Below, piece by piece: positions 29,774 to 51,701 of a DNA stretch of 64,000 nucleotides (positions are counted from its first letter, which is position 1; each line of letters starts with the position of its first letter). The stretch is from Kiritimatiellia bacterium (lineage in GTDB: Bacteria; Verrucomicrobiota; Kiritimatiellia; RFP12; UBA1067): assembly GCA_033812795.1 (NCBI GenBank), contig JAPXSY010000001.1, forward strand, positions 2,282-66,281, written 5' to 3'. Made by a program: the position numbers and the translations under genes. Under the pieces are notes generated by a model. The model was not told the DNA's origin, ran no database searches, and saw nothing but the letters and a program-made list of their open reading frames with translations.

Positions 29774-30028
29774 CCTTCTCGTTCCTGCCCACCTGCACCC
29801 GCGGCGCATGACCGAAGCCCGGTAGCCTGTCGCCATTCGTAACAATAGCATACCGTACCCATGGCACAAAAGAAGCAATGAAAAAAGAAATGTAAAATTG
29901 TTGTATTGTCCGTAACTGTGAAGATTGACAGGGCATACGGGAATGTGGGAAGCTATCGACAACACGAAAATGGTGCTGGACACTTAGATGCCTTCATGAG
30001 GACGAAAAAGGATAGCGGGCGCGGGCGC

Positions 30029-30526: not shown

Positions 30527-33199
30527 TCACATTTCTTTCTGATTGCCGAACAGCGTCACACGCCAGGGCGTGACGACTTCACCGACCGTCTTCCAACCGC
30601 GCGGATAATCCGGGAATACAAGCCCTGTCACCGGGCCACGTTCCTGCAACCGAAACCTCGGCATGTCACCGCGATTCGCATCGCAAACCACGACCTGTAG
30701 TCCGTCTTGATCATCCCATGGGCCGTTTTCGAGATACTGCCAGCGAGCTCCTTTCGTTGGCTGGACACGCCGCCGGTACAAGAGTTTCCCGCCCGTCACG
30801 TTCCAGGCCGCCATTTCGCCGTAGACGGTACGCACACCGGCTCCGGGGACACGCCAGCGGAACGCGATACCGCCGTCAAACGCACGGATCTCAAACGTCG
30901 CCGTCTCGCGCCCGGAGATCAGGTCCTTCATCGGAACGACGGCCTCCTCGTATCCGCGGGCTTTCTGCGGATGCACGAAGTCCGAATCATCCCGCAGCTC
31001 ATCCGTCGGCGCATCCTTGGCCGTGCTGAATTTTGCCGCGCACGGCACGATAAGCTTCCCGAAATCACGGTACCCCACGGTGACCCCAAGCGATGATCGG
31101 TCGATGATCCGTGCGCCATCATAATCGGCGGTCCACGAGAAACGACCTGCCGTGTCGAGAAAAAACTCGGCTTTCGTCCGTCCGTCAGGACTCTTGACAC
31201 CGATGCGGGCGGCATCGGCAAAACCAATCGGTTGCGGCGCAACCGAGAGCCGCACCGCATTCGTTTCCGTCACCACGATGTTGCCGACGATCGGCATCTC
31301 GTCCGCAAGCGACTTTGCGAGTCCGCCCAGCGAAAACGCCCGTCCGCAGTTTTGGAACACGTTGCCGGAGATTGGATTGGAGTGGGGCAGGTTCGGCCGG
31401 TCGTCCACCAGCGCGGCAATCTCGGGATAGGCCACATGCCACGGCGCCTTGCGGTAAGCAAACGGCATCACGCAGGACTCCGCCCAACTGTTTCCATCAC
31501 CGTCTGGCAGAAAACTGCCGCGCAGGCGGCGTTCCCATGAGACTCCGCGATCGCCACAAGACACCCCCGTCCTCACGTCCACGAAGAGATTGTTGTGGAT
31601 GCGGTGCATATTGCCGCCGCCGATGAGAATTGCGATACCGGCTCCGAAAAAACGGTTGCCGATCACGTCATCGCCCCAATCGCAGTCGTCGAAGTAGAAA
31701 GCGCTGCGGTGCGCCAACAGCTTGGGATCGCCGTCGCCCAGCTCGTGGACAACATTCCCGAACAGCAGATTGCCCTGGGAGCTTGTGTCGTAGCCCGTGT
31801 AGGTCGCGCCAGCGTCACAGGCTTCCAGGAGCACATGATGAATATCGTTCTCGGCGAAGAGATGCTCATTGCCGCCGTACCCGATCGCCCCGGCCGCGCC
31901 ATGGTGAATCTCGCAATTGCGGACCGCGTTACCGCACCCGCCGACTATGATGCCGAGCGCGGTGCGGCTGAAGCGGCCATAATTCGTCACCTCGCTCTTT
32001 TCGATGAGGTTTCCAGAACCGATCAAGTTCTTGCGATCGCCACCGTGAAGCGTGATGCCGCTTCCGCCGGTCTTTTCGACCACACACCCCGTGACCACGT
32101 TGTCACGGCCGTTCACGGCAAGCGCCACGCCGCCGAAATTCGCAAACCGGCAGCCGGATAGGACGACATGCCGGCTTTCCGAGCCCAAAGACACGCCCGG
32201 CGCGGTACCGTGGGAATAGGCGAAAGTCATGTTCTCAAAACGCATCCATTCGGCCTTGTCGAGCGCCACAAGCGTCGGTGCCGCCGGAACGAGCACCACG
32301 GGCATCTTTTCCCGCCCCGGCACAGGCAGAAGATAGAGCTTTTTCGCCTTGCGGTCGAGCCACCACTCGCCGGGCGCATCCAGTTCGGCCGCAACATTCA
32401 CGACCTTGAAGCGGCGTTCCTTCATGCCGCACGTTCCCTTACCGAGCAATCCCCACTTGTGTATCTTGCGGGGCTTCGCAATGTGTTTTGCCGCATCATA
32501 TTCCGCCAGCCGCAGGATCTCCTCGTCCCAGTCGTGTTTCCAATAGCCGTCACACCACACGCCCTCATCGAGATTCCACCGCGCGGCATTCGGTGCGCCT
32601 TCAAGGAAGAACGCCCCCGGCCGCACGGCGAACTCGTTCTTGGGGTCGTCCGTGAGCCCCGTGTCCGCGACCTTGTCAAACGATGCCCATTTGCCGTTCG
32701 GCCAACTGGCGATCTCAAGCGGTTCGCCGTCCTGATAGAGCCAGGGGCCCGGATGCATGCCGTGGTAAGCGTCAGGCCACGGCTTCAGTTCGCCGGGAAG
32801 CACCTTCGAGACGTCCGCCACGCGGATCTTTTCCCGAACGTCCGGGGAAAACGACGCCAGCCGTGCATGGTCAGCCACCGATGCGAACTCGGAAGGCTCG
32901 ATCATGATGCCGCTGACAATCTTGACCGTTCCGGGCTTCTCCGCACGCCAGATTACCGGCGCACCCGCAGAACCCGAATCCTCCTTGCCGAAGACAAGTG
33001 TACCGGTCATTCGATACTCGCCGGGCGCAAGCGTCACCGTCACCGGTTCGCCATGCCGAATGCGTCCGGACGCGCGCGCCGCGCGCACTTCGTCACGCAC
33101 CTTGACGAGGTCGCCCCCCGAAGGCACGTCCAACGTGAATCCAAGCGTGATGCTGGCAGAAAACAGCGCTGCCAGTGCCAAGATTGTCCTTTCGCCCAT
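30527..33199 (-). CDS. Secreted right-handed parallel beta-helix (pectin-lyase-fold) protein with an extra C-terminal domain
   Basis: Signal peptide MGERTILALAALFSASITLG. Multiple PbH1-like repeats (NVVTGCVVEKTGGSGITLHGG, NAVRNCEIHHGAAGAIGYGG, HLFAENDIHHV). Confidence 0.8.
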   Translation of the reverse strand: MGERTILALAALFSASITLGFTLDVPSGGDLVKVRDEVRAARASGRIRHGEPVTVTLAPGEYRMTGTLVFGKEDSGSAGAPVIWRAEKPGTVKIVSGIMIEPSEFASVADHARLASFSPDVREKIRVADVSKVLPGELKPWPDAYHGMHPGPWLYQDGEPLEIASWPNGKWASFDKVADTGLTDDPKNEFAVRPGAFFLEGAPNAARWNLDEGVWCDGYWKHDWDEEILRLAEYDAAKHIAKPRKIHKWGLLGKGTCGMKERRFKVVNVAAELDAPGEWWLDRKAKKLYLLPVPGREKMPVVLVPAAPTLVALDKAEWMRFENMTFAYSHGTAPGVSLGSESRHVVLSGCRFANFGGVALAVNGRDNVVTGCVVEKTGGSGITLHGGDRKNLIGSGNLIEKSEVTNYGRFSRTALGIIVGGCGNAVRNCEIHHGAAGAIGYGGNEHLFAENDIHHVLLEACDAGATYTGYDTSSQGNLLFGNVVHELGDGDPKLLAHRSAFYFDDCDWGDDVIGNRFFGAGIAILIGGGNMHRIHNNLFVDVRTGVSCGDRGVSWERRLRGSFLPDGDGNSWAESCVMPFAYRKAPWHVAYPEIAALVDDRPNLPHSNPISGNVFQNCGRAFSLGGLAKSLADEMPIVGNIVVTETNAVRLSVAPQPIGFADAARIGVKSPDGRTKAEFFLDTAGRFSWTADYDGARIIDRSSLGVTVGYRDFGKLIVPCAAKFSTAKDAPTDELRDDSDFVHPQKARGYEEAVVPMKDLISGRETATFEIRAFDGGIAFRWRVPGAGVRTVYGEMAAWNVTGGKLLYRRRVQPTKGARWQYLENGPWDDQDGLQVVVCDANRGDMPRFRLQERGPVTGLVFPDYPRGWKTVGEVVTPWRVTLFGNQKEM

Positions 33200-33242
33200 T
33201 TTGTCTCTCACTTGATCAACCCCCATTCTTGCGCGAAGCTTT

Positions 33243-34967
33243 TCACGGATGCGAAGGCCGTTTCTTCGGCACGTGCTTCAGATCGTAACGACCGGTGTCG
33301 AAATCCACGATCATCCGCGTGCCGTCAGAATAGGCGACCTCGACCTTATCCGTGCCGAGGATGCGGTGATCGGTCATAAACGAGGTCTGAAGATGACAGC
33401 GGCGGGCATACTCGTCGACTCCTCGCTTGACGGCGGCAACGGCGGCGGCGAAGTGCGCGGGGGTGTCGAACTCGAGATCGGCCTGACCCATCCAGGCGCG
33501 GCCCTCAAGGAACTTGGAATGGACGTAGAACACGGGGCGCGCGCCGAATTCGGCCGCAACAAGCTGCGTACGCTTGTCTTTGATCGTGTAGTTCGTCGTG
33601 TGCGCGAAGGGATTGGACATGACGATGCCATGATAGACAAGCTGCCAGAACGGCACAAAGCGGTCCGTCAGCTTCGGCATCGGCGCGGTCGGATCGGCGA
33701 ACGAAACATATAACGCATAATCAAGACTCCCGGCGGTGAAGTCGAAACCGCCTTCACTCGCGATGCCGCCCATCAGATCCGCCCCGCGCCGCAGCATACG
33801 GTTCACGTAGTCCGCCGCCTCGCGCCGCGTGAGAGGATGCCGCCCGTCAAAGCAGCGGCGCGGCGTGACGATCGACAGGACGTCGATGTAGTGCAGTCCG
33901 CGAAAACCCAGCGCGGCGATTTTCCCAAGATCGTGCTGCGCGTACTTCTCCCATGCGACCTTCGGGCAGAGATTATACATCTGTCCGCCCGACCAGCAGG
34001 CGTTCTTCGATAGCGTTCCGTCCGGCGCTCGAATGATGTCATCCGGCGACCAACATTCCGCAACCGTATAGGCGTCGGAATGATTATTGTGGCAGACAAT
34101 CCGGTAACCCAGCGACTGCACGTCGGCAATCAGTTTCTTAAGACCTGCCTCGCCGCCAAGCTCCGGCTCGACCGGGAAAAGCTGCGGATAACGTCCGTCA
34201 TGTCCCTTCCGGTTCCAACCGACGAGACAGATTTCCACCCGTTCGACACCCGCCGTCTTGAGCGCATGCGCGAACTCTGAAACCCGGTCGAACGTCACCG
34301 CCACCTTCATCGGGGGCTCGTTGGACGGCGTCTGCTCCTTCACCGGCGGCGGCGCGGGCTTCCATGCCTGACGGATGCGCACCTCGACAGCCTTGGCGGC
34401 ATAAGCGAGATCCGGATTTTTCACCAGCCGATCCCCGAGTGGAACGATTTCGCCGCGCGACAGCCGCAGGTCGCGATACCATGCCGCCATCTGCGGATAC
34501 TCCGCCACCGGCGGCAAGGTTTGAATGCGAATGGCGATGTCTTCCTCGGGCACTCGTCCGCCCAGATCGAAGCGCATCGAAACGGAATAGTCGCCTTTGA
34601 CCGCACGCACGATCAGTTTACAGTCCCATGGCAGGCCTTCGATGAGCGTAGCGAACGTCCCGCGAGGCGTCTTCATCCCCCAAAGCGGCATCAAGTCCGT
34701 CGGCACGGAAAACTCACCTTCTTCTTCCCGGAACGTACCAAGATGACCCGACGGCAACACGAAGTATCCAGACTCCCCCTTCTTCGCCCGCGCGAAATCC
34801 GGCGTCACTTTCACCGAGACCGCGTCCTTCGGTATGCGCGCCCGCGGCCAGACGAACTGCACGACATGGTTCGTCTCGGGTATCTCGACGGTCTCGACCA
34901 CCCTCTGGCCCGTCGCCAGAGTCGACTCCACCGTAAATGCCGCAGCAAACAACAAACTCAAAGCCAT
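33243..34967 (-). CDS. Secreted putative glycoside hydrolase (TIM-barrel-like, family not recognised)
   Basis: Signal peptide MALSLLFAAAFTVESTLA; 574 aa protein-like; embedded in the same-strand GH cluster, 4 nt after the upstream gene stop. Confidence 0.65.
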   Translation of the reverse strand: MALSLLFAAAFTVESTLATGQRVVETVEIPETNHVVQFVWPRARIPKDAVSVKVTPDFARAKKGESGYFVLPSGHLGTFREEEGEFSVPTDLMPLWGMKTPRGTFATLIEGLPWDCKLIVRAVKGDYSVSMRFDLGGRVPEEDIAIRIQTLPPVAEYPQMAAWYRDLRLSRGEIVPLGDRLVKNPDLAYAAKAVEVRIRQAWKPAPPPVKEQTPSNEPPMKVAVTFDRVSEFAHALKTAGVERVEICLVGWNRKGHDGRYPQLFPVEPELGGEAGLKKLIADVQSLGYRIVCHNNHSDAYTVAECWSPDDIIRAPDGTLSKNACWSGGQMYNLCPKVAWEKYAQHDLGKIAALGFRGLHYIDVLSIVTPRRCFDGRHPLTRREAADYVNRMLRRGADLMGGIASEGGFDFTAGSLDYALYVSFADPTAPMPKLTDRFVPFWQLVYHGIVMSNPFAHTTNYTIKDKRTQLVAAEFGARPVFYVHSKFLEGRAWMGQADLEFDTPAHFAAAVAAVKRGVDEYARRCHLQTSFMTDHRILGTDKVEVAYSDGTRMIVDFDTGRYDLKHVPKKRPSHP

Positions 34968-34971
34968 TCCC

Positions 34972-37900
34972 TTACCTCCCTAATCCGAAAATGTAGACCT
35001 CGTCCAGCGCCACGTCCCCGTTCTTGTTGTGCTTCGGGTCGCGATTCGGCGTGAAAGCGAGGCGCACATAGCGTCCGCGCACGCCCTGCAGCCGGATCTC
35101 GGCGTAACGCGAAACATCGTGAAGCTTCTGGCTCCACGCCATCACGAACGACTTCGCTTCGGTGTAGTCGCGGCCGTTCTCCGAAAAGGCGACCTTCACA
35201 GCGACCGGGCCGAGCGCGCGGTTTTGCGTGCGCATCTCCCAGAACATGATCCGCGTCAGATCGCGCACGCTCTTGAGATCGAACTCGACCGTCGGCTCGG
35301 CGATCCCCTTCCAGACACAGCTCCGGCGTCGTCCCGCCCGGTCCCCGCTCTGCAGCGCCCAAATCTCCGTACCGTTCGCGCGCGTCGCGTTAAGCGCATC
35401 CTTGATCTCCTCACCCTTCGTTTCGTCGGCGACAGAAAGATGACGGTAGGTCGCTCCCGTCCACTCACTCCAAGGCATGTTCCGGCTCACCCAGTTGTCC
35501 GAAAGGAGAATCTCGCGCCCTTTCTTCGGCACGTCAACGCAGACCACCGTATGCGTCACCGCGACACGACGCCCCTCGCGGTCGAAGAGATCGACCGTGA
35601 GCGGATAGATCCGGTTCGGATAGAGTTCGGGATTGCCTTCCGCCGGCACCGTGAGCGTGAACGCAAATGCGGCGCGCGCGCCACGCTTCAGCGGATCGCA
35701 CGTCTGCGCCGGCGAGACCTTCCAGCCCTTGAGCGCATGGAGCTGCACGCGACCACCGGCGAAGTCGGCGCGGACGGACGGATTGTCAATCGTCACGTTC
35801 ACGCGGAACGTCGCCCCCGGCTTCAGCAGCGGCGTTGCCTCGTCCGGCGCGGCGGCGCGTCCGCCAAAGTCCGCGAAGGCGGTCCCCAGAAGCGGCGCAT
35901 GGTCGCGCAGCAGATACAGGAACGCCGCGCTCTTCAACGCCGGCAGTTCGAATCGGACGCCGTCGGCCGTGCGCGTGAACGGCACGTCGTCAAGCGCGTT
36001 GCCCTCGGCCAGCCCGATGTAGGCTTTGCGGACATCCCGCACGAGATCCGCCGGAAGCCGCACGTCCAGTGTCGCCGGCGCGGCCGGCCGGTAGGTGAGC
36101 GCCGATACGGCGATCACCACATTGCCCTTCGTATCCACGAGCGGCTTCTCGCAGCGGAAATTGCACGTTTCGTCCGTCGACAGCGTGTACGACGGCGCAA
36201 TCCCCGCATCCTTCAGGAGTGCACGGAACATCTCGCGCGCGGGCACCTCGTCGTTAGCGGACTCGCTGCGGATCGTCCCCATCTGCGTGTTCGTCCAGTA
36301 CGCCCGTCCCTTGCCGTAGCGGTTGCGCGTCCAGATCGCCGCCTTGTTGGAGTAGTAGAGCCCGTGTTGCGCGTTGACGACCTCGGCCGTCGTCAGTTTC
36401 CAGCGGACCTTTCCGTCAGCCCGCACGAGGTTGCCCCACGGCGAGCCGAACCACACGTCGCCCTGATCGACGACGATATCGTGCGATTCCCAGATGCCCT
36501 CGAACGTGACGCCGAGAACGTCCGTCAGGTTGTTGTCGGTCCGCGGCAGGTTGTGCTCATCGAAGGCCCCGCAGCGGACGTCGCAAAAGAGCCGGCCGCC
36601 ACCCTTCACGTAGGCGCGGATACGTTCAATCTCCGCATCGTCAAAATGCTCGGCCGCGCAGAGGAAGAGGCCGTCGATCTGGCTCATGTAGACCGGATTG
36701 ATCTTTTCGTACGTGATGACGTTCACGTGATAGCCCGCGTCCCGCAGGTGCTTGTAGAGCCGCAGGCGCGAATTGATCGGGAACCCCCACGGCTCCATGT
36801 TATCGTCGATGCCGAACGGCACGTCGCGCACGGCCATCAGGATCGCCAGCGTCGGCGTTCCACGGACAGGTGCCGACTCGGTAAACAGGCGCTCAGTGCG
36901 GTGGACGGCCGAATAGAAGCGCGGCAGATAGTAGATCTTCTCGCGGTTGGTGGCGTCAGGATTGATGAAGCCGAAACTCGCCCAGTCACCCCACGCGCCG
37001 AACCAGCCGTTGCAGAAGAACGTGCCGCCCTTCAGGCCGTTCGGGATCATCCGCCAGACGGTCTGGGCGAACTGCCAGCCCGGGCCGTTATGGTTGTTGT
37101 TCTCGCCGTAGAGCATGCCGCGGCGTTTGCCCGGCCGCCAGTCGTCCGGGACGATGGTGTGCGTGTAACAGTTCATCTCATAGGCGTTGCGGTCGCCGTG
37201 TCCGTAGTGGTCCATGCCGCGAACGCCGTCGGTATAGGGCGCGATCGCCTTTCCGATCAGCTCGTGATTGCCGCGTCTTGTTCGGGCAATGCGCTGCATC
37301 TCGAGCGAACTCTGCGTGTCCTTGCCGTTCACGCTGCGACGCTTGGGGTCACACGACTGAATGATCTTGTAGTACTCGGCGAGGAACTCCGCAAAGCTCT
37401 CCTGCTGAAAGCGAATCCAGTCCATGAAGTGCCCCGGCGTCTTCGCATAATCATCAAGCCGGCACGGCTCCGCCTCGGCGAATGAGTTGTAGTCCTTGCC
37501 CCAGGCCCGGTTCAACTTCGCAAGATCCCCCTTGTAACTTTTCGTCTCGAGCCACACGCGGAAAGCCGCGACCGCCTGATCCGAATAGTCGAGAGGCGGC
37601 AGGTACTCGTTATCAATCTCCCACTTGAAGATCCGGTCGTCGGCGACAGCGAGCGCGTTCGACACCGACGTGCGCGCGAAGTCAAAGATATACTCACGCA
37701 CCTTGGGATCGAACAGGCAGGCGCAGCGCACCTCCTTGCCGTCTTGGTCGCGGATCTTGGCAAGCCATGGACGCGTCTGGGCGCTGATGGCGCCCCAGAT
37801 CGAAATGCCGTAGACACCCTGCGGCGCGAAGTCCTCGGGCTTGGTATTCTTGTCCACGCCGCGGCAGACGTAGTTCCCGCCAACCGCGACGTTGAAGCCA

Positions 37901-39045
37901 TGGGTAAAGTTCTCGCCGAGCACGCCGACCGGGAAGAAGCCGTCTGTGCCGTTCATGTGCTCGTCGATCTCAAGCGAATACGCCCGTGCCGACGTGAGCG
38001 GATCTGTCAAGTCCAGCTTCGGCACCGACGCCTGCAGGTCCGGTTCGGCGGCCGCAACCGTACGCAGGACGCCATCGCGGTATTCGATTTCAAAGAAGCG
38101 CATGCGTTCGGCCCCGGCCGGGCCATTCGGCTGGTGCAGGGTCAGGGTCAGGGGTCCCCGATCGCCTCCGCCCACCAGTTTCCGGAAGGACATTCCATGC
38201 CCGCCGTTCTCGGGGAAGAGCATCCGATGGTTCTTCCAGGGGCCCTTCACGCTCCCCGTCTCGGACTTGGTCCAGTAGACGCAGTAGGCTCCGTTCGACC
38301 GGACCGTCGACCAGGTCATCAGCAGATCACCCGACGCCGCATCGCGGAACAGAGAGGGCCCGTCCGTCACGAGGCAACTCGCCTTCACATCCGGAGCGGA
38401 CGAGGCCTTGAACAGCGTGACGGGGTCCCCTGCGGCATCCGAGAGATCGTCTCTGAGCGGCATCAGGCACATCTCCCCGTCGCGAACCTGCGTCCACTCG
38501 TGACAAAAGACCATGTAGGGCCTACCGTCCTCGACCACGAGCGTCCCGTCGAGCGCGCTCCAATTCGGCGGCGTGACGGAGTCGCGCTTGACGATCTCGT
38601 AGGGGCCTTCGGGACGGTCGGCGGCGAAGATCCAGGTCCCGCGCTTGACGTGGTCACGCCAACCGGGATGATGCGGCACCTTCGTGCCGTTGAAGGTGAG
38701 CGTCGCGAACAGATACCAGCGCCCATTGAACTCATGTACCTCCGGCGCCCAGACCGCCGTACAGTTCAGCTCCTTTGGGAGATCCAGGACATGCCGCGGT
38801 CCCGTCCACTGCTCGAGATCGCGGCTCAGATACATCTCCACGCCCTGTCCCGTATGACGCCAGGCGTCCGCCGCCTCGTTTTTTCTGGCGTAGATGCTCG
38901 AATAGAGGCGGTAGACGCCCTTCTCGCCATCCGCGACGACAAACGGATCGCGAATGTGGATGTCGCCTGACGGCAGCGCGGCCCCAGCCCCCAGACATAA
39001 CGCCACACCGGCAATCGCCAGACAGAATCTCAGTGTAATATGCAT
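34972..39045 (-). CDS. Multidomain glycoside hydrolase: GH43-like beta-propeller, GH42-like beta-galactosidase TIM barrel and trimerisation domain, F5/8 discoidin-like C-terminus
   Basis: Signal peptide MHITLRFCLAIAGVALCLGAGAA. GH43-like motifs (RDPFVVAD, WAPEVHEFNGRWYLF). GH42-type acid/base context KWEIDNEY. The discoidin-like tail ends at LDEVYIFG. Confidence 0.8.
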   Translation of the reverse strand: MHITLRFCLAIAGVALCLGAGAALPSGDIHIRDPFVVADGEKGVYRLYSSIYARKNEAADAWRHTGQGVEMYLSRDLEQWTGPRHVLDLPKELNCTAVWAPEVHEFNGRWYLFATLTFNGTKVPHHPGWRDHVKRGTWIFAADRPEGPYEIVKRDSVTPPNWSALDGTLVVEDGRPYMVFCHEWTQVRDGEMCLMPLRDDLSDAAGDPVTLFKASSAPDVKASCLVTDGPSLFRDAASGDLLMTWSTVRSNGAYCVYWTKSETGSVKGPWKNHRMLFPENGGHGMSFRKLVGGGDRGPLTLTLHQPNGPAGAERMRFFEIEYRDGVLRTVAAAEPDLQASVPKLDLTDPLTSARAYSLEIDEHMNGTDGFFPVGVLGENFTHGFNVAVGGNYVCRGVDKNTKPEDFAPQGVYGISIWGAISAQTRPWLAKIRDQDGKEVRCACLFDPKVREYIFDFARTSVSNALAVADDRIFKWEIDNEYLPPLDYSDQAVAAFRVWLETKSYKGDLAKLNRAWGKDYNSFAEAEPCRLDDYAKTPGHFMDWIRFQQESFAEFLAEYYKIIQSCDPKRRSVNGKDTQSSLEMQRIARTRRGNHELIGKAIAPYTDGVRGMDHYGHGDRNAYEMNCYTHTIVPDDWRPGKRRGMLYGENNNHNGPGWQFAQTVWRMIPNGLKGGTFFCNGWFGAWGDWASFGFINPDATNREKIYYLPRFYSAVHRTERLFTESAPVRGTPTLAILMAVRDVPFGIDDNMEPWGFPINSRLRLYKHLRDAGYHVNVITYEKINPVYMSQIDGLFLCAAEHFDDAEIERIRAYVKGGGRLFCDVRCGAFDEHNLPRTDNNLTDVLGVTFEGIWESHDIVVDQGDVWFGSPWGNLVRADGKVRWKLTTAEVVNAQHGLYYSNKAAIWTRNRYGKGRAYWTNTQMGTIRSESANDEVPAREMFRALLKDAGIAPSYTLSTDETCNFRCEKPLVDTKGNVVIAVSALTYRPAAPATLDVRLPADLVRDVRKAYIGLAEGNALDDVPFTRTADGVRFELPALKSAAFLYLLRDHAPLLGTAFADFGGRAAAPDEATPLLKPGATFRVNVTIDNPSVRADFAGGRVQLHALKGWKVSPAQTCDPLKRGARAAFAFTLTVPAEGNPELYPNRIYPLTVDLFDREGRRVAVTHTVVCVDVPKKGREILLSDNWVSRNMPWSEWTGATYRHLSVADETKGEEIKDALNATRANGTEIWALQSGDRAGRRRSCVWKGIAEPTVEFDLKSVRDLTRIMFWEMRTQNRALGPVAVKVAFSENGRDYTEAKSFVMAWSQKLHDVSRYAEIRLQGVRGRYVRLAFTPNRDPKHNKNGDVALDEVYIFGLGR

Positions 39046-39069
39046 CGAAAGCCCTCGTCTTCTTTAACC

Positions 39070-41232
39070 TTATTTTGTGGATACGTCGATCCCATGAACC
39101 ACCACGGGAGCACCCGTCAACTCAAGCGTAATTTCCCCATTGGAGGCGGCGAATGTCTGTGTGCGCCCGAGAACGTCCGTCACGGTCACGACATCCTTTG
39201 TGGCGCGAAACGTGTGCTTCTTCACCACGCGCCAGTGGTTGAACCAGGGCTCGTAGTGGAAGAACGGCGCACCTTTCACGCGCCGCACGGGCGCATGCCA
39301 ACGCGTCTCCGTGCCTTCCGTGCGGTCGTAGAGAATCGCAAAAGGACCATTGGGTGAATCAAACGTCATACCGCGCAGTTTATCAGCCTTCTCTTCAGGC
39401 TGGATCCACCGTCCGAAACGCGCACCATCCAACACTTCAGCGGCCGTTACGAATCCCATGAATGAAGGTTTGGGCGAATCGTCACGCATTAACAACCCGT
39501 AGTGATACTCCATGTCGTTCGGATTCACACCGTCCTCATCGTAACTGATGCCTTCGTGCAACTGGTAGAAATGCATCGCGGCGGCACCCTCAGCCACGGC
39601 AAGCGCACATGTGAGGAAGGTGTTCTCGCCCGCCTGACGATATGAATCGGCCCAGCCGTCATTCGGCTTCGTCTTGGCATAGACCTCCGTGTAATACATC
39701 GGCTTGTCGGCGTAGCCAAACGAAGCGTACATTTTCTTTGATCCGCGCACGAGACCAAGATACTTCCAGCCACCAGCCGCGTCATCCGCCGTAAAAAAGC
39801 CGCGCGCTGGATGGATCGCGATGCCATCAAGGCGGTCGAAGATGCCTTTGTCCTTGATCAACTTCGCAAGCGCGGGTCGAAATGCGCTCGTACCATAGAT
39901 GATCTTGAACGTGCCGCCCTGCCGCGTACGTTCAGCACGTAGAGCGTCCAGCCATGTGGAGTAGGCATCGTAGAGGCGGTGTTGGATCGCGAGGTCGCCA
40001 CGATAGCCAATTTCATTGCCGAACTCCAAAGTCGGCGCCCCCTTGGCAATGGTGTTCGCCACCCACTTCGCCACACGTGTCCTGTGCTCGACGTTGTTCA
40101 TATCACAGGGCGTCTCGGGACATTGGAAGTGGTCGCCCGCGATAATTCCATAGGAACGCGACACGCGGTTGTCACCGCTGCGAAGATGACGCACGCCCAT
40201 ACGCTGCATGAGCTTCAGCTCGGCGGCCACCTCTTCGGGCGAACTGAACTTCTTCCCGAACCGCGCATTCATACCAAGAATGGAAGATTCCCGATGCACA
40301 AACGTGTAAGGCGGAAGAATCGCGAAATTCGTCCGCGTAAAGGCGTTTGTCCCTGCGCGCGCCTCGGCAAAATAGAGTCCCCGTGCCGTGACAGGAACAG
40401 TCATGGGGAGTCCCTGACGCTCTCCCGGCATAAGAGCGCACGTATTCGTTTGAGAGAAGACAAGCTGTCCATCCCAGTCACGGACATCGACGCCAACCGG
40501 GATGTCCGCAGCCTCCCGCCCAGTATTCGCCACGTTCAGCATCATGGATACGGGGCCCTTCTCCCAGAGGTTGTTGCGCTTCTCCGTATCCAAGTGCACG
40601 GCCACGCCCTGCCCCGCATGACGCGCCGCCACCTGCCAGCCGGGGTCATCTGCCGCCGCACGATAAAAGGTCAAGCCCGCCCGCCACACGCCGTTCGTTC
40701 CGCCCGTAAAGTTCAAGTGCTCGCTGTGCGGCCCACACCAATTCTCGTTACCCGTAAGCTCGTACCAGAGAGTCCCGCGTGCGCCTGACATCTGTTTCAA
40801 TTTGACGTTGTACGTTTCGTACGCCTCGCCCTGCTCGGGATTTGCGGCACAACGCCGCCATGTGCCGTGCTTCTCCACACCCTTTTTCTTGACGCCTTTT
40901 TCGAGGCGCAAATCCAGCATCACGCCGTCCGCACGGGCGTTGGCAGACACCGTGTAGACAAAATCCCACCGTACGCGATCCCCCCCATTGCTCACCGTAG
41001 CCTTCAAATCGGCGTCCGTGTAGGCCACAGCACCGACATTTTCTGTGAACGTGCAGGACACGGGACTCGCCTTGCCTCCGCTGAACTTGAAACGCACGTC
41101 CCCGACACCCACGACGTCATCCACCCACACGCATCCTTGCTTCAGCACGACTTCAGCCATGCTTGTACAGGCCAAAATAAGCGCCGTCACCAGAATGCAA
41201 GAACGGTCAATACGAAGTGAGAAATGGATCAT
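39070..41232 (-). CDS. Secreted clan GH-A (TIM barrel) glycoside hydrolase, paralog A
   Basis: Signal peptide from ATG 41232 (MIHFSLRIDRSCILVTALILACTSMA); NEP-type acid/base motif LEFGNEIGY; a paralog of 43924..46296 (shared YGLLMRDDSPKPS). Confidence 0.8.
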   Translation of the reverse strand: MIHFSLRIDRSCILVTALILACTSMAEVVLKQGCVWVDDVVGVGDVRFKFSGGKASPVSCTFTENVGAVAYTDADLKATVSNGGDRVRWDFVYTVSANARADGVMLDLRLEKGVKKKGVEKHGTWRRCAANPEQGEAYETYNVKLKQMSGARGTLWYELTGNENWCGPHSEHLNFTGGTNGVWRAGLTFYRAAADDPGWQVAARHAGQGVAVHLDTEKRNNLWEKGPVSMMLNVANTGREAADIPVGVDVRDWDGQLVFSQTNTCALMPGERQGLPMTVPVTARGLYFAEARAGTNAFTRTNFAILPPYTFVHRESSILGMNARFGKKFSSPEEVAAELKLMQRMGVRHLRSGDNRVSRSYGIIAGDHFQCPETPCDMNNVEHRTRVAKWVANTIAKGAPTLEFGNEIGYRGDLAIQHRLYDAYSTWLDALRAERTRQGGTFKIIYGTSAFRPALAKLIKDKGIFDRLDGIAIHPARGFFTADDAAGGWKYLGLVRGSKKMYASFGYADKPMYYTEVYAKTKPNDGWADSYRQAGENTFLTCALAVAEGAAAMHFYQLHEGISYDEDGVNPNDMEYHYGLLMRDDSPKPSFMGFVTAAEVLDGARFGRWIQPEEKADKLRGMTFDSPNGPFAILYDRTEGTETRWHAPVRRVKGAPFFHYEPWFNHWRVVKKHTFRATKDVVTVTDVLGRTQTFAASNGEITLELTGAPVVVHGIDVSTK

Positions 41233-41242
41233 CGGAAAACCC

Positions 41243-43267
41243 CTAGCGGAAAAGCACCATGGTACCACGTCCGCTTGGAATCCGCACGAAGACCGTGTTG
41301 TTCTCCCTAATCAGTCTTGTGCCTAATTCAGGAAACGGCAGAATCGCATGAGCGTTCAAGCCTTCGATGTCGATGCTGGACTTACTGTGCTTCCGATTCC
41401 AGAATCCACCCTGGTCGTAGAGGAGCGGCACCATGAGCGTCGTCTGCGGACGCTCTCCCGACGCCAGCACCACTTCAAACACGGCGTTGTCATAAAGCTC
41501 CACGTTATGATTGCTGCCCGCCACGTTCTGAAACGGCGCGGTTTCATACCCGGCATCCGGCACAACATAGCGCAGGCGCAACGGATGCTCCATCTCCGCA
41601 CCGTCCAGTCCGAGCGCCACGCCTGGGTACGGATCCGCGGTCGAGCTCACTTTCGCGCTCGTCACCTTGAAGAGCGGCTGCGCACCGCGGAATTCAAGCG
41701 CGCAGTTCGGACAGTTCGTAAACGGATAAAGAATACCTTCAGACGACCAGTTCCGTGAAAACGAACCCGACTTCACCACGGTCGTGTTCGACACGCAGAA
41801 CACGGAGTTCGAACTGCCGTTCTCAAACCGCAAACCATCGCACCAGGAAGCCAGGTTCACCTCGCCGCCAGTCACCGTCACGCAATTGTCCCGTCCCGCA
41901 AAGCTCACCGTTCCCGTCACCGTACCGCCTGTCACCCACGCGGCATTGTTTGTCCCGTCCATCACCAATTTCGCCAGACTCACGCCACCCGTAATTTCCA
42001 CGCGGTTGGACATGTTGCCCGTTGTGATCGTGGCCGCGTTCTGGATGCCGGAAGAAAGCCGGTACACGTTATCCATGCCACGCACGGAAACCGACTTGTC
42101 CGGTCCCGTGCCGCCACAGATTTCGTACACGTTCCCCGTTCCTGTCAAGTGCACGCCGTTATTACCCAGCGTCAACGTGCCGCCCGCGTTTTCGAATCGG
42201 TTGCTTTGTCCTTCAAGGAACAAGCCGCCACTGCCCCAGCCATCCATTTTCACCGTACTGCCTTCCATACGGAACACGTCCCAGGCACCCCGCATCGACA
42301 CGCGGCTCAACGTGAGAGTCCCCGACGTCCCCGTCACGTCGACTCTGTTGGAATATGATTGGTTCGGATTCACCGTGGATCCAAAATTAAGTCCACGATT
42401 CGTGTTGTAGACACTGATCGTGGCATTATGGAAAATCGCGCGGTTGCGAACCGCCAGTCCGTTGTAAGCGCCTGATGAGTATTGTGTTTCAGCAGGTTGC
42501 GCGTTGCCAAATGTGATCACAAACAACCCCAATGTTCCGTTGGTGATCGCCAGCGTACAGTCGGTTGCCTTGTAGAATTTGAAACCCCGGCCGACATGCG
42601 CTGTGGACGATGAGCCGCCATTGACCAGCACCGTGCCGCCATCGCGAATCAGGAATGTGTTGCCCGTACCTGAAATGTGTGAATATTCGGAATAGCCAGC
42701 CGTTTCCAAAAGTCCCCCATTCCGCACATCCAGTAGACATCCGGCCAGCGTTGGATCATTCGCAAAAAACACGTATTTATCGTTCACGGCCACGACATTT
42801 GTACTGCCGTCAATCACGAGCGAGGAGTTGTTCTTGTTGAGCACAAAGGCTTTGTTCTGCGGTTGGTTCAGAAACACGCCGTTCGTAAAAGTCACGGACG
42901 AATCCTCACCCACGGCGAAAGATGTGATGTTCGAGATCGTCCCGTTCTGAAACGTCGCCGAACCGCCCGTCACGGAGAACGCATTCGTGACACCCAGCGC
43001 GTGACCGCCCAGATTGAGCAAAAAGTCGGAAAGACCGCTGACCGTGAAGTCGCTGATCCACATCTCGCTCGAGAGCGTCCAGCCGTCAGCGGGGACAGTC
43101 CCCGTGGCGTCGATCAGCGCCGAATCATCGACCCCGGGTTTCGCGCCCCCACTCCAGTTAGTGTCCGTCGCGAGATCACCGTCCGTCGCGCCCGTATAGT
43201 TCACCGTTGCGGCTGAAAGCCCAGAAACCGCCAACCCCGCCAGCCAGCACAAGACACTCTTTTTCAT
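41243..43267 (-). CDS. Secreted Gly/Thr/Asn-rich beta-helical surface protein (autotransporter-associated beta-strand-repeat-like)
   Basis: Signal peptide MKKSVLCWLAGLAVSGLSAA followed by NYTGATDGDLATDTNWSGGAKPG; repetitive G/T/N/S-rich beta-strand repeats throughout. Confidence 0.75.
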   Translation of the reverse strand: MKKSVLCWLAGLAVSGLSAATVNYTGATDGDLATDTNWSGGAKPGVDDSALIDATGTVPADGWTLSSEMWISDFTVSGLSDFLLNLGGHALGVTNAFSVTGGSATFQNGTISNITSFAVGEDSSVTFTNGVFLNQPQNKAFVLNKNNSSLVIDGSTNVVAVNDKYVFFANDPTLAGCLLDVRNGGLLETAGYSEYSHISGTGNTFLIRDGGTVLVNGGSSSTAHVGRGFKFYKATDCTLAITNGTLGLFVITFGNAQPAETQYSSGAYNGLAVRNRAIFHNATISVYNTNRGLNFGSTVNPNQSYSNRVDVTGTSGTLTLSRVSMRGAWDVFRMEGSTVKMDGWGSGGLFLEGQSNRFENAGGTLTLGNNGVHLTGTGNVYEICGGTGPDKSVSVRGMDNVYRLSSGIQNAATITTGNMSNRVEITGGVSLAKLVMDGTNNAAWVTGGTVTGTVSFAGRDNCVTVTGGEVNLASWCDGLRFENGSSNSVFCVSNTTVVKSGSFSRNWSSEGILYPFTNCPNCALEFRGAQPLFKVTSAKVSSTADPYPGVALGLDGAEMEHPLRLRYVVPDAGYETAPFQNVAGSNHNVELYDNAVFEVVLASGERPQTTLMVPLLYDQGGFWNRKHSKSSIDIEGLNAHAILPFPELGTRLIRENNTVFVRIPSGRGTMVLFR

Positions 43268-43923
43268 ACCAACCCCCTCTTGCCTCAAATACTTGACCGT
43301 TAAACTGCGTCAGATCGTAGCATAACCGACGAGAAACCTCCACGTTAACTTTCTCCGTCATTTGTAATCGGTTCGTGACAGGGGGATGCGAGTTTAGTGC
43401 GTGGTTTGTGTGTGCGCAGTCGGGAGCGCGGGCGTCTTCCGCGCTACGCGCGGATTTAGGATTTAGCCTGCCGCACGGCTTCGCCGCGAAAAAACCTTGG
43501 AATAAGTTTAGGACATGGTTTCCGACAGATTCGCTTCGGCGGGGAGAAATCCATGATTAACATGATGTTGTTCAATCCTGAAAATCCTGTCATCCTGTCA
43601 ATTTGTAGGCAAGGAGTTAGGAGTTTTTTCACTTCGACATTCTGAGTTCGGCGTCGGGCGTTCGGCGTTCAAAGGCGGCGGCGTGAAACGCCGCCCGGAC
43701 GAGCAGACGCTCGTCCCTCCCATCCTGCGGCAAAACAAAAAAATCTGCGCAATCTGCAAATCTGCGGATAAAACCAGCAGCCTCAAGACACGTTGTTGCG
43801 GGCAAGGACGCCCACGCTCCCTTCTCACTGCTCCCCTTTTCACCAGAAACGCATGACCTTCGCACAGCCCTGTCACGGACCGATAGCCCGTCGTTTCGCC
43901 CGTTTCAAAACGGAATTACCCGA

Positions 43924-46296
43924 TCAATCGCTCACCTTGCCGCTCGACTTCTCTTCGGCGGCGTATTCATCTTCGCTCGGCTCCCGTCCGACGGCCGGCG
44001 CCGCAGGGAACGACGCGGCGGGCAGGATGTCAACCGGATCCAGACCGTAGACAAAGACGGGTTCGCCGTCGAGCGCGATCTCGAACTTCCCGTCCTTGAC
44101 CGCCGCCGGCCGTTCGCGGCCGATCATGTCGAAGACGCGCACCGCGCCCGCTGTTTTGAACGCATAGGGCTTCGTGCGGTGCCAGTGCCGCACCCACGGA
44201 TCCTTGTGCCGGAAAAGCGCGTCGCGGTAGACGCCCTTGGGCAGTTCGCGCTGCCAAAGTTTGTACAGCATGCCGCCTTCGTTCCGGTCGAAGAGGACCG
44301 CCAGCCGCCCGCGGGGCGTGTCGAAGACGAATGCGCGCAGGGTATCCGTGCGGTTTGTGCCGGCTCCCTTCTCACCGAGAAACTTCGCGCCGTCCAGATG
44401 CTCGCATGTCGCCGCATAGCTGAGAAGGGACGGCTTAGGCGAGTCGTCGCGCATCAGAAGCCCGAAGTCGTACTCGGCGTTCACCGTCGTCTGCCCGCTC
44501 GGGTGCGCGAGCGGATAGCCGTGCGGATCTTGGCTCGTGCCTTGGTGAAGCTTGTAGAACATCATGTTCTTGACGTTCGGCTCGACGGATGCGATGACGA
44601 GCGACAGGAGCGTGTTCTCGGTCGCCTGGCGCAGCGAATCCTTCCAGCCGTCGTTCGGATGCGTCGCCGCATAGCATTCGGTCATGTGGATTTCCTTGTC
44701 TGGGTAACCGAGCTCGGCGAAGCGGGCGCGGGCACGCTGGATAATGCCGCGGTATACCCAACCGCCGTGCGTCACATCGGCCGTATAATAGCCGCGCCCG
44801 GGGTGAAGCGTCAGCCCGTCCACGAGGTCAAAGACCCCCTCATCCTTCATGATCCGCATCATGTGCGCGGAATAGTCCGGCTGGATGCCGAAGGTGATGA
44901 TCTTGACGTGTCCGAGTCCTTCCGCCGCGAGCCGGGCACGGATGACCTTGAGCCAACTCACGTAGCATTTGACAAGCCGCGTCTGTTCCTCGTGCGTCTT
45001 GTGCCAACCGACTTCGTTGCCGAATTCGAAATAAGGGTTCCCCCGCTCCTTGATGCGGCCGACGATCTCCTTCTCGATGATCTTGACGTGCTTCGGATTC
45101 TGCGGATCGAACATCTCCGGCGGCGCGTGACGGGAGGCGTAGGCGGTGATGCCATAGTTTGTCCGGAAATGGTTGTTGTCGCCGTAGCGGAGGATCGACA
45201 CGCCGAGACGTTCCATCAGCCGCTCGGCTTCGGGCGTTTCGGGATAGGACGCCATCGCCGCGATCGACGTGTCGCGATGCGTGAACCGGTGCGGCGGCAA
45301 CACGGCAACATTCATCCGCGCGAAGCCATCCTCGCGCTCGCCCTCCCCGACCGTCGACTCGATGAACCAGATGCCGCGTGCGCCCTCTTCCACGGCCGGC
45401 AATGCATAGTCCCTGACGAACGGCACGCCGATTTTGAACTCGAACCTCTCGGACTGATCGAAAACGACCTTGCCGTCGAAGTCCCGCGCCACCGTCCGTA
45501 CTGTCCGCCAGCCATCGATTAGCGGTTTGACCGTAAGCCGGAACTTCGGCGCACCGCTCTCGAACAGGTTGAACGGGCGCTCCGTCGCAAGCGCGATCAC
45601 AAACGGCCGCCCGTCCACCTGTGCCGCGGCGCATTGCGCATCCTCGGAGTCGACGCCCGTCACGAACTCAAGCCGTCCGTGATAGACGCCGTTCGTTGAC
45701 GTGCGGGGGAACCCCGGACACTCCGTCCGCGCGCCCGACCAGCCGGTGTTCCGGCACCAGAAGACCTGACCGGACTTCGCGCGATACGGCTTAACGTTCA
45801 TGCTCTTGACCTCGAACGGCACCCCGGGATCATACCACCCTTCCGCCACCGCCGGCTTGCAACGTTGCCAATAGCCGCACTTCGTCACTTGCTGGCTCCG
45901 CCCCGTGTCATTCAGGCGGAAGACCTCGACCATCTGTCCGCCGCTCCTGAAGCACGGCGGGATTTCCGAGACGAAATCCACGGCGAAACCATGTCCCGTC
46001 AGGTACGCTTCCGCCGAAAACGGAAAGTTCGTGCCGCTGGCATTTGTGATCTCGTAGGCGATCCGCAGACGGTTATCCGACGTTCGCTCCGCCGACTTCG
46101 GCACAGCGCACGGCGTCGACCACACGAACGGAACCTTCCCGACCGCAAGGATGTCGGTTCCCGTCTTGTCCGCAATAACCAGTCGGCCGTCGGCAAAGCG
46201 CAATGAACACAGATCATCCGAAAGCCGCGGCGCGTCGCTCGCCGAAAGCGTCCCCGCAGCCCAGATAACCGCCAGCAGCGTCCACCTCGTCTTCAT
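43924..46296 (-). CDS. Secreted clan GH-A (TIM barrel) glycoside hydrolase, paralog B
   Basis: Signal peptide MKTRWTLLAVIWAAGTLSA and FEFGNEVGW acid/base motif; clear collinearity with 39070..41232. Confidence 0.8.
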   Translation of the reverse strand: MKTRWTLLAVIWAAGTLSASDAPRLSDDLCSLRFADGRLVIADKTGTDILAVGKVPFVWSTPCAVPKSAERTSDNRLRIAYEITNASGTNFPFSAEAYLTGHGFAVDFVSEIPPCFRSGGQMVEVFRLNDTGRSQQVTKCGYWQRCKPAVAEGWYDPGVPFEVKSMNVKPYRAKSGQVFWCRNTGWSGARTECPGFPRTSTNGVYHGRLEFVTGVDSEDAQCAAAQVDGRPFVIALATERPFNLFESGAPKFRLTVKPLIDGWRTVRTVARDFDGKVVFDQSERFEFKIGVPFVRDYALPAVEEGARGIWFIESTVGEGEREDGFARMNVAVLPPHRFTHRDTSIAAMASYPETPEAERLMERLGVSILRYGDNNHFRTNYGITAYASRHAPPEMFDPQNPKHVKIIEKEIVGRIKERGNPYFEFGNEVGWHKTHEEQTRLVKCYVSWLKVIRARLAAEGLGHVKIITFGIQPDYSAHMMRIMKDEGVFDLVDGLTLHPGRGYYTADVTHGGWVYRGIIQRARARFAELGYPDKEIHMTECYAATHPNDGWKDSLRQATENTLLSLVIASVEPNVKNMMFYKLHQGTSQDPHGYPLAHPSGQTTVNAEYDFGLLMRDDSPKPSLLSYAATCEHLDGAKFLGEKGAGTNRTDTLRAFVFDTPRGRLAVLFDRNEGGMLYKLWQRELPKGVYRDALFRHKDPWVRHWHRTKPYAFKTAGAVRVFDMIGRERPAAVKDGKFEIALDGEPVFVYGLDPVDILPAASFPAAPAVGREPSEDEYAAEEKSSGKVSD

Positions 46297-46396
46297 CGCC
46301 CGGCACTCCTCAACGGAAGCCGACCGGAAAGGTCGTCGCGCCGAAGGTCACGTCTCCCGATAGCGTATAGCCTCCTCATTCGCTGGAGCCCCTGCA

Positions 46397-48175
46397 TCAA
46401 CGGATCGTCAGCACACTCCCGCTCGGCGGCGGTTTCGCGTAGATCGTCTTCCCCTTGTCCCAGACAAGGGTCCAGCTCGGGGGCAGGATGGCGCTTGCAT
46501 TGAGCTGGTCAACGACGGTTTGGGACATATCCAGCCACCCTCCCGCCGTGTAGAAGAGCGGCACCGGCTCTGTCCCCTTGTAAGCGGAACCATCAATTTC
46601 AAATACGGTATTACCATAAAGCGTTGCCGTTCGATTCACGACCTGGTTCTGCATCGGCGCGGCAGCATAGCCCTGTTCGGGGATGACGAACTTGAAGTGC
46701 ACGGGATCCAGAAGCGGCTGTCCGCTCGCCGTACCGAGGACCCAGGCCTTCCAATTCGGCGTGGAGACACAACGCATCAGCGGGTTTGTGCCACGGAATT
46801 CAATCGCGGCGTTCGGGCTGTTCGTCCAGTTGAAGGCATCCACATTGCCGCTGCCGACGCAGACGCGCCCGTTCATCGTGTAGGTCGCATTCGAAATGAC
46901 CAATCGGCCGTTCGGCTTCTCTGCAAAGGAAATCACGCTCCCGTCACCTGGCGTATAGTACTCCGTGCCGTCCTTCAGGACAAAAACGTTGTTCGTGCCG
47001 CCAAGGACGACCGCATTCTGGCCGGCGTTGTTCGTCCAGGCGGCCGCCAGTTCACAAAGGCAGTCCTTAGAAGCTGCACCGAATGTCAGCACCCCGTTCG
47101 CACGCTTCGCCCCGATGGAAAAGTATCCGTTCGTGCCGCTGAAGGTCAGGCTCTTGTCCATCGTGCCGTCCACGAACTCGTAGCGATTGGAAAAGCCCCC
47201 GATGGTCACGCCGTAGGGCGCCGAGCAGGTACCGCCCGTCTGACGGATCAGGTTCGGTCCATTTCCTCCCATTGTCAACGTTCCTTTGTTTCACGTCACC
47301 AGCAGGCCGTCCGACAGGAGCAACCGGTTGTACCGGCCATTGACCTGGCAGCTTCCCGATGACAGCTCGCCCCCCAGCACTTCAACCCGGTTCGAGACGC
47401 CATTCATCACCACCGGAGGCGAGGCCTTGGCCGTGTCCTGAATCCGGAGAAGATCCCAGGCGCCGTTCATGTCAAAGGTCGAGAAGCCGCTGGCAACACT
47501 TGACCCGGAAACGACCATCTCATTGGAAACCGAATACCCGGACCGCCATTCAAAATACCGCCGCCCCGTATATTGGGGTGTCGCCTGCGGCACATTCATG
47601 GAAAAGGTCGAATCATGCACCAGCAGACGACACCCTGTCGCCTTCTTGCTGTCCAGACCGAACCTGAAGACGAACGCCGTCATCGTCGCATTCGTCAGGG
47701 CGATCGTGCAGTCCTTGGCATTGCCGAAACCAGACCCCCAATTGTATTCCGTGATGTCGCTGAGCAGGAGCGAACCGCCTTCCACCCGGATGTTCGACCC
47801 CGTGCCGCCGAGTTTGAAGAACCCCCTGTTCGGTGTTGTCACATGGTAGGTTCCCCCGTTGACGATATCGAGGGACAGGCCCGTCACGCCCAATGAGTTG
47901 CACAGGCCACCCGCCCGCCCTGCCTGAGTGGCCGTCTCCTCGAGCCATCCACCATCAATGAGAATCGACACGTCATTCTTTGTGACCAGATCGTCGGACG
48001 CAGTCGATATGACCCTCGTGCCGGCATTGAGGATCTTCACCTCATCTCCCTGCGCCAACGAGCCCAGCAGCGATGCGACCTCGTTCGTTCCCGAGTCATA
48101 GATGTACGTCGCCGCGCGGACGATCCCAGGGACAATCGACAGGCTCACAGCCAACATGACCATTCGTTTTTTCAT
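46397..48175 (-). pseudogene. Beta-helical surface protein paralog interrupted by an in-frame TGA (47291..47293)
   Basis: ORFs 47291..48175 and 46397..47278 are in the same frame. The first resembles the N-terminal half of the 41243..43267 protein (SNRVEVLGGE vs SNRVEITGG; CTIALTNATMTAFVFRFG vs CTLAITNGTLGLFVITFG). The second resembles its C-terminal half (AAIEFRGTNPLMRCV vs CALEFRGAQPLFKV; NASAILPP vs NAHAILPFP). TGA is a normal stop here (gyrA ends in TGA). Confidence 0.55.
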
Positions 48176-51682: not shown

Positions 51683-51701
51683 CTTCCCTCACCTCAACCC
51701 G

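Follow-up and report, generated by a model that had tools for sequence, protein, structure and literature searches.

Polysaccharide utilization loci (PULs) of Bacteroidota are recognized by adjacent SusC-like and SusD-like genes and encode together a sensor-regulator, several secreted glycoside hydrolases (GHs) and a non-catalytic secreted accessory protein, with conserved enzymes and a variable accessory gene. Among the glycan degraders often met in rumen and gut are the uncultured Kiritimatiellia and Lentisphaerae, and their way of capturing polymers without machinery of the SusC/D type is the question on which the locus described here bears. It lies in a stretch of 64,000 nucleotides (hereafter, the window) from a Kiritimatiellia bacterium (assembly GCA_033812795.1, contig JAPXSY010000001.1, positions 2,282 to 66,281 of the forward strand). 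An earlier note on this DNA described a glycan-degradation cluster of seven consecutive same-strand genes at 30527-48175, in which a module consisting of a beta-helix protein and a clan GH-A hydrolase is duplicated. Coordinates of open reading frames (ORFs) agree with this count, eight long ORFs of the minus strand representing seven genes, and the assignment to glycan degradation stands as well, given clear Pfam matches to GH43, GH42 and GH42M. The region is best explained as part of a chromosomal carbohydrate-utilization unit of ~24 kb (~30.5-54.9 kb) belonging to an uncultured Kiritimatiellia bacterium. The kind of cluster is ordinary; less ordinary are its two old copies of an unannotated gene pair, encoding a beta-helix protein (hereafter, partner) and a hydrolase-like protein. 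Those features that the earlier note had stressed, i.e., the absence of SusC/D, the tandem duplication and the split gene, are either ordinary or need correction, while the noteworthy ones are a clan GH-A family that has gone unannotated and a very small group of beta-helix proteins with a C-terminal tail, which share the accessory position with pilin-like genes of sister lineages. The two pairs, designated A and B, and the spacer between them are arranged as follows:

39070-41232, minus strand: hydrolase-like A, 720 amino acids (ORF 39070-41268; the start at ATG 41232 matches database protein P0001)
41243-43267, minus strand: partner A, 674 amino acids (ORF 41243-43288, start ATG 43267)
43268-43923, no strand: intergenic spacer between pair A and pair B, 656 nucleotides by ORF coordinates
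43924-46296, minus strand: hydrolase-like B, 790 amino acids, separate subfamily, 35% identical to A
46397-48175, minus strand: partner B, 592 codons with one in-frame TGA at 47291-47293 (ORFs 46397-47278 and 47291-48175 in one frame)

The true start of hydrolase A is probably ATG 41232, and the protein matches, at 100% identity, a hypothetical protein recorded under the name of a Kiritimatiellia metagenome-assembled genome (MAG). Hydrolases A and B share 35% identity over ~725 amino acids (E 2e-114), and partner A, taken as the 681-residue ORF, is 29% identical to the C-terminal half of partner B (E 4e-22) and 28% to its N-terminal half (E 4e-14), so that the paralogy proposed earlier holds far beyond chance. 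Scans with Pfam and NCBIfam revealed no model matching either hydrolase. In the structure model, built like the others on a shallow alignment of 8-9 sequences with predicted local distance difference test (pLDDT) scores of 73-75, hydrolase A consists of N-terminal beta-sandwiches, a (beta/alpha)8 barrel of the TIM type and a C-terminal beta-sandwich. Nine sequences, both paralogues of the window among them, agree without exception in N406-E407 (within GNE) and T515-E516, two motifs that fall at predicted strands 401-406 and 512-519, and are invariant also at R, H, Y and W positions characteristic of clan GH-A. The motifs of hydrolase B are intact (FGNE at 45013-45024 and TECYA at 44668-44682). 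The model and the catalytic motifs together back the clan GH-A assignment made earlier for both paralogues, which we would describe as distant GH39-like members of this clan with putative catalysis. The nearest known proteins are those of GH39, namely the divergent BcGH39 of Bacteroides cellulosilyticus WH2 (PDB 5jvk) and PslG (4zn2). The sole GH39 sequence similarity of the family is a 46-residue local match to 5jvk; Pfam Glyco_hydro_39 gave no match to A or B at E 0.01, and hhalign of the family profile against a Pfam-positive GH39 neighbour protein returned a probability of only 0.1. The family is sparsely represented: a word-indexed search of 5.8 billion proteins found only eight relatives, and a scan of 185,579 species genomes gave 24 loci with a hydrolase-like gene, mostly in rumen and gut assemblies, belonging to Kiritimatiellae, Victivallales and other Lentisphaerae, Thermoguttaceae, a Verrucomicrobia MAG and one Corynebacterium. 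Being outside Pfam and NCBIfam and accompanying a GH42-like enzyme in most related gut loci of the Planctomycetes-Verrucomicrobia-Chlamydiae (PVC) group, it is a candidate for a new CAZy family or subfamily. As a separate observation, many hydrolase-like proteins (from loci L004, L005, L006, L007 and L009; proteins P0004-P0008) have their C-terminus extended by a conserved charged stretch, H-E-x-x-H-K-x-x-D-[VI]-E-[ED]-I-D-[RK]-x-N-R-E-COOH, which might be a docking or retention peptide; hydrolase A does not possess it, and hydrolase B has a different, acidic one.

Partner A is composed of a signal peptide (judged, as all signal peptides here, by eye from the N-terminus), an N-terminal NW motif, a right-handed beta-helix covering approximately residues 95-500 and a conserved C-terminal domain (nucleotides 41246-41719) that finishes with the tail GTMVLFR-COOH (41246-41266). 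The C-terminal domain of partner B is encoded at 46400-46825 and has the tail GSVLTIR-COOH. Both proteins model as right-handed parallel beta-helices, that is, solenoids with three-strand coils, just as the earlier note had supposed. Neither Pfam, even at E 10, nor NCBIfam matches them, and a sequence search of PDB with the partner was likewise negative. An exhaustive hidden Markov model (HMM) search of 1.84 billion representatives confined the family to 85 clusters, and ten members looked up in these clusters are all named just "hypothetical protein"; for the metagenome scan, an alignment of the C-terminal domain only was used as a query. Alignment of 43 full-length members showed the N-terminal NW motif, conserved helix columns occupied almost exclusively by Asn, Gly, Thr or Phe, and the strongest conservation in the C-terminal domain, with blocks TNCPNCAIEFRG..P, RLRF.LP..Y..AP, PL.YD and KTL. 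In other proteins the same domain comes after GDSL esterase or LamG/DUF2341 domains, which fits the expectation for a stalk-plus-anchor module. In fold the partner resembles passengers of type V autotransporters (Vag8, UpaB, pertactin, Hap), the sequence identity being 10-13%. Autotransporters, however, carry a C-terminal 12-stranded outer-membrane beta-barrel translocator, for which the partner gives no Pfam match at E up to 10; its helix is followed instead by a family-specific, beta-sandwich-like domain of ~160 residues ending in Gly, five hydrophobic residues and Arg. A side observation concerns two related loci, L007 and L016, where hydrolase-like genes are 100% identical while the partner-family genes upstream of them share only ~34%, so that the genome region may hold two distinct partner genes or the assembly may be chimeric.

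Small as it is and lying outside Pfam and NCBIfam, the tailed beta-helix family holds a conserved accessory position. A partner gene precedes a same-strand hydrolase-like gene in both pairs of the window and in loci L003, L004, L007/L008, L009, L010, L011, L016, L034 and L037, the two genes being usually adjacent and sometimes separated by one enzyme gene. Four of the five loci reached via the partner (L007, L009, L010, L037 and L038) have a hydrolase-like gene downstream, and in L042 a 1770-residue protein combining LamG, helix and the C-terminal domain is encoded along with a 1232-residue protein containing a hydrolase-like domain. The next position is also conserved, since in many Kiritimatiellia-type loci (the window, L001, L003, L004, L005, L007, L009, L016 and L034) a gene for a GH42-like protein with an F5/8-type-C domain comes after the hydrolase-like gene, either immediately or a few kb further on. 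In most Victivallales-type loci (among L014-L030), the hydrolase-like gene is preceded by a gene of ~250 codons for a pseudopilin-like protein bearing the prepilin N-terminal methylation motif, N_methyl (e.g., L019 9068-9841 and L023 8828-9625), with a LacI-type regulator before it, and is followed by a gene of a size similar to that of the GH42-like one, which is GH42-like by Pfam in both loci scanned (L019 and L023). An N_methyl gene stands at the accessory position in the Kiritimatiellia-type locus L001, too. The occurrence of pilin-like and tailed beta-helix proteins at one position implies that the enzymes are constant, while the accessory slot is taken, from lineage to lineage, by differing secreted proteins of elongated shape that are presumably exposed on the surface. 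Titles and abstracts retrieved by literature searches on DUF1559 and on Kiritimatiellae with glycoside hydrolases contain nothing that bears on the gene pair.

On these grounds we consider it somewhat probable that the partner is a surface accessory protein working with the secreted hydrolases of a carbohydrate-utilization unit. It would be an elongated, non-catalytic stalk, similar to autotransporter passengers, that binds the polymer or holds the enzymes, its family-specific C-terminal domain and tail serving to sort it to, or fix it on, the cell envelope or a partner protein; such a glycan-binding or tethering role was already suggested in the earlier note and gains strength from the conserved gene order. 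Several facts weigh against this view. The hydrolase-like gene occurs without any partner in loci of Victivallales, Thermoguttaceae and Verrucomicrobia, which means that the coupling is not obligatory, and partner genes are found beside other enzymes as well (L010, L040 and L042). Partner B has a stop codon in this assembly, the tail is modelled as coil with pLDDT of ~54 and could in fact be a terminal strand missed by the model, the structure models rest on alignments as shallow as stated above, and substrate specificity is unreadable from families so distant.

A first alternative assumes that the adjacency has no functional meaning, the partner being a general envelope or adhesin protein of Kiritimatiellia inherited by chance beside the hydrolase in a few related genomes. 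The hydrolase-like genes that do without a partner in other PVC lineages fit this assumption, as do partner-family genes beside unrelated genes (e.g., L038) and the origin of all partner-containing loci from a narrow set of gut Kiritimatiellia. The pairing, however, has been kept in both hydrolase subfamilies though the partners diverged to 25-40% identity, the gaps between the two genes are often 10-40 nucleotides, and regulators of the same type flank partner genes; moreover, in almost every locus the slot upstream of the hydrolase-like gene holds a tail-bearing or pilin-like secreted protein, even if it is non-homologous. We regard meaningless adjacency as unlikely. Still less credit is given to the assumption that the partner is itself carbohydrate-active, for instance as a lyase, hydrolase or epimerase from a new family of beta-helix enzymes, which would turn the pair into two enzymes. 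Since conserved columns of the helix are those of Asn, Gly, Thr and Phe, they argue against a catalytic groove, though short of exclusion, and judging by the alignment the partner proteins, having no conserved residues of catalytic type, are most likely not enzymes.

The remaining alternative concerns the history of copy B and is linked to its interrupted gene, which the earlier note had taken as split. In the sister strain L035, an independent assembly with 99.2% nucleotide identity over 7.5 kb, the codon corresponding to the in-frame TGA reads GGA (Gly) and the protein is uninterrupted, and in the family alignment this position falls on a Gly of partner A. Partner B is therefore a single gene, and its stop is either a G-to-T nonsense change specific to the strain or an error of assembly. 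Recoding of the TGA by selenocysteine insertion or read-through was considered and rejected on account of the same two glycines. As to the age of the pairs, hydrolase B is 72% identical to its counterpart in L010 and 64% to that in L034 (both Kiritimatiellia-type), 43-44% to those in the Victivallales-type loci L014 and L015 and just 35% to hydrolase A. L034 is a Hadza-gut Kiritimatiellaeota MAG, where the orthologue of hydrolase B lies once more downstream of a partner gene and upstream of a GH42-like one; L014 is a Victivallales MAG, and L015 is a MAG with the same gene order. Partner B is about equally distant from every family member (71-144 bits), partner A not being the nearest. Because B has orthologues of its own and partner B is no closer to A than to other members, the two pairs appear to be old lineages placed side by side. 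This excludes a recent tandem duplication, and the former idea of a module duplicated as a unit is, by the sequence comparison, possible as an ancient event only. That a recent local duplication produced copy B and left it to decay, with partner B as a pseudogene and hydrolase B as redundant, is very improbable: the in-frame TGA, the position of partner B as the most divergent member of its family and 11 nonsynonymous against 5 synonymous codon differences of hydrolase B from the sister strain would speak for it, but the orthologues of hydrolase B, its intact motifs, the GGA of the sister strain and the 10 synonymous and 7 nonsynonymous changes in partner B, unlike free decay, speak against it, the codon-difference counts being in any case too small to judge selection.

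The C-terminal tail merits separate consideration. In the logo of 73 sequences, Gly occupies position -7 in 85% of cases, five hydrophobic residues follow, and Arg is the last residue in 71%, being otherwise replaced mostly by Lys or Gln. A census with a strict pattern among 1141 stop-to-stop ORFs of at least 150 amino acids, taken from the window and 34 related loci, gave 12 matches, 10 of which are partner-family members, and none of the glycoside hydrolases included had the tail. The other two matches (L005 55-2094 and L006 98-3085) are located directly upstream of a hydrolase-like gene and end in GLIIVVQ and GLFIVVQ. A third tailed outsider was noticed in a partner-containing operon (L040 7317-10127, ending in GMMLIIR). 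These three proteins of 669-937 amino acids (L005 88-2097, L006 275-3088 and L040 7317-10127) have no Pfam match and show no homology to the partner family nor to each other. Judging by this distribution, the tail appears to be both specific and portable. In having an element at the extreme C-terminus, at a fixed distance and behind varied N-terminal cargo, it resembles the C-terminal domain (CTD) of type IX secretion system (T9SS) substrates, the PEP-CTERM/exosortase system and the beta-signal of outer-membrane proteins. Pfam and NCBIfam scans of the partner, however, gave no match to the known sorting domains (T9SS CTD and PEP-CTERM). PEP-CTERM combines the PEP motif with a helix of ~20 residues and a basic cluster, while the partner tail has no PEP motif and its hydrophobic run of five residues is too short for such a membrane helix; the beta-signal ends in Phe or Trp, while the partner tail ends in Arg, Lys or Gln. 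A T9SS is not known from Kiritimatiellia. We tentatively put forward, as a possibility that we hold for rather doubtful at present, that the tail, with or without the preceding domain of ~160 residues, is an undescribed sorting or strand-donating signal of gut Kiritimatiellia, marking non-enzymatic elongated surface proteins (beta-helix stalks, some with esterase or lectin heads, and in addition at least three unrelated families) that work with secreted glycoside hydrolases, and that pilin-like proteins play the same role in Victivallales. If true, this would represent a PVC-group counterpart of the surface glycan-binding machinery of Bacteroidota, and a sorting signal would offer a handle on surface display in a phylum without a genetic system; if the tail is not a sorting signal, a cleaner annotation of an otherwise ordinary cluster of carbohydrate-active enzymes is still gained.

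Other genes of the unit are as follows:

30527-33226, minus strand: secreted protein of 899 residues with a right-handed beta-helix and, C-terminally, a GH97_N-like beta-sandwich (by Pfam), last gene of the operon
33243-34967, minus strand: 574-residue DUF5696 protein, GH129-like and related to GH101 (Pfam DUF5696 3.7e-35; PDB 5wzn)
34972-39045, minus strand: 1357-residue fusion of an arabinanase-like GH43 and a GH42-like barrel with GH42M and a weak F5/8-type-C domain (by Pfam and PDB)
48291-49922, minus strand: SSF sodium:solute symporter (Pfam SSF 1.8e-26; NCBIfam sss 1.1e-30)
49932-52859, minus strand: three tandem paralogous QueG/reductive-dehalogenase-like 4Fe-4S proteins (gaps of 9 and 19 nucleotides, one overlap of 4 nucleotides)
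53726-54937, plus strand: AraC-family regulator with a periplasmic-binding-protein-like sugar-sensor domain (Peripla_BP_3 3.5e-34; HTH_18 5.6e-20)

In the fusion, Pfam scores exceed the cut-offs for GH43 (96.6 bits against 32.2), GH42 (54.9 against 21) and GH42M (34.5 against 25.8), whereas F5_F8_type_C (22.8 against 28.2) falls below, so that the GH43 and GH42 parts of the annotation given earlier hold and its discoidin part is sub-threshold. The GH43 part matches the endo-arabinase 5c0p in PDB (E 2.9e-39); PDB GH42 beta-galactosidases were matched at ~7e-8. As the GH42 match spans only ~100 model residues, the barrel should be called distantly GH42-like. This part shares 55-70% identity with the neighbour of the hydrolase-like gene in L001, L003, L004, L005, L007 and L009, these copies being without a GH43 domain. 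It was observed in addition that the fusion is confined to the lineage of the window (L036 covers a part of the gene) and that its orthologues in L003, L007 and L009, with ~1034-1184 amino acids, have no GH43. The protein of 574 residues, formerly a "putative GH", can now be named as DUF5696 (PF18952, 122 bits against a cut-off of 25.6) and GH129-like. Its residues 84-451 match 5wzn, the NagBb enzyme of Bifidobacterium bifidum deposited as an alpha-N-acetylgalactosaminidase (E 6.6e-23), and GH101 enzymes in PDB are matched weakly (~2e-4); with both families the likeness is one of sequence and the relationship is distant. Orthologues are present in L003, L004, L009 and L010 (84% identical), while L037 and L040, too, hold DUF5696 genes; a full-text literature search on DUF5696 found nothing. 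According to titles and abstracts, GH129-like enzymes comprise both alpha-N-acetylgalactosaminidases and 3,6-anhydro-galactosidases and are discussed in carrageenan catabolism as well (PMC5698469), because of which the specificity is not transferable to the 574-residue protein. The N-terminus of this protein, MALSLLFAAAFTVESTLA, has no basic n-region, so that the signal peptides ascribed earlier to all seven genes are apparent in six and weak or uncertain here. In the protein of 899 residues, Beta_helix (2.3e-10) and NosD (1.3e-7) matches confirm the pectin-lyase fold assigned to it before, and GH97_N gives 9.7e-17. Its similarity to BT_1002 (PDB 5mqp), a GH141 fucosidase, is weak (E 8e-4) and makes it a candidate GH141-like enzyme.

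Genes inside each block are spaced by 4-100 nucleotides, and the 656-nucleotide spacer probably separates two transcription units. It contains two GC-rich hairpins with an unremarkable fold z-score of only -1.75, and an Rfam scan of the whole window, including the spacer, gave zero matches. A terminator-like hairpin was found at 30469-30453, after the last gene of the operon, in a promoter and terminator scan that as a whole did not exceed shuffled expectation. The GC content is ~60% throughout, and the remaining window looks like ordinary chromosome (gyrA, uvrB and a Clp ATPase). The boundary drawn earlier at 48175 is too tight, since the symporter, three Fe-S genes and the AraC regulator continue the unit. 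The symporter gene, 115 nucleotides upstream of partner B on the same strand, has a 58%-identical relative in L003 and likely imports released sugars. The Fe-S proteins (321, 262 and 385 amino acids; the first and the third 34% identical, E 7e-58) are distantly related to QueG and reductive dehalogenases, far below family cut-offs, and are odd company for an operon of carbohydrate-active enzymes. The regulator is transcribed divergently from the cluster, and the same type is divergent beside partner or DUF5696 genes in L003, L004, L007, L010, L037, L040 and L042. Some genes next to the cluster were also noticed. Just downstream of it, large secreted proteins of 1383 and 862 amino acids with only weak CBM9 or CBM_4_9 matches are encoded at 25503-29654 (minus strand) and 22559-25147 (plus strand), and a 1280-residue CBM_4_9-like protein is encoded near the hydrolase-like gene of L001, too. 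Between the cluster and the CBM protein, a 167-residue ORF (29906-30409, plus strand) whose only domain match is a cupin/AraC-ligand-binding fragment, a DNA-binding domain being absent, may be what is left of a regulator.

Taken as a working scheme, the AraC-type regulator would sense a sugar through its sensor domain and turn on the minus-strand genes, and the secreted set, including two GH39-like GH-A hydrolases, the fusion of GH43 and GH42-like parts, the GH129-like enzyme and the beta-helix GH141-like protein, would depolymerize a galactose-, arabinose- or N-acetylgalactosamine-type glycan outside the cytoplasm, while the symporter would take up the breakdown products. Plant arabinogalactan, pectic side chains and host O-glycans may be regarded as obvious candidates for such a substrate in the gut.

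In comparison with the PULs of Bacteroidota, the likeness lies in the joint encoding of a sensor-regulator, secreted glycoside hydrolases and an accessory protein, of which the last varies and the enzymes do not. The adjacent SusC-like and SusD-like genes have no equivalent in the window: TonB-dependent receptor (TonB_dep_Rec, Plug), SusD and ABC transporter domains are found in none of its scanned large ORFs, as expected for a Kiritimatiellia genome, which is outside Bacteroidota. The earlier claim that the cluster includes no importer is correct in respect of these types, but with the symporter in place it is true only for the coordinates then chosen. The two systems differ, then, in the host, which here belongs to the PVC group, in the importer, represented here by an inner-membrane SSF symporter in place of SusC/SusD, and in the accessory protein, which in Bacteroidota is a lipoprotein with a SusD or Ig-like fold and at this locus is a predicted beta-helix with a C-terminal tail.

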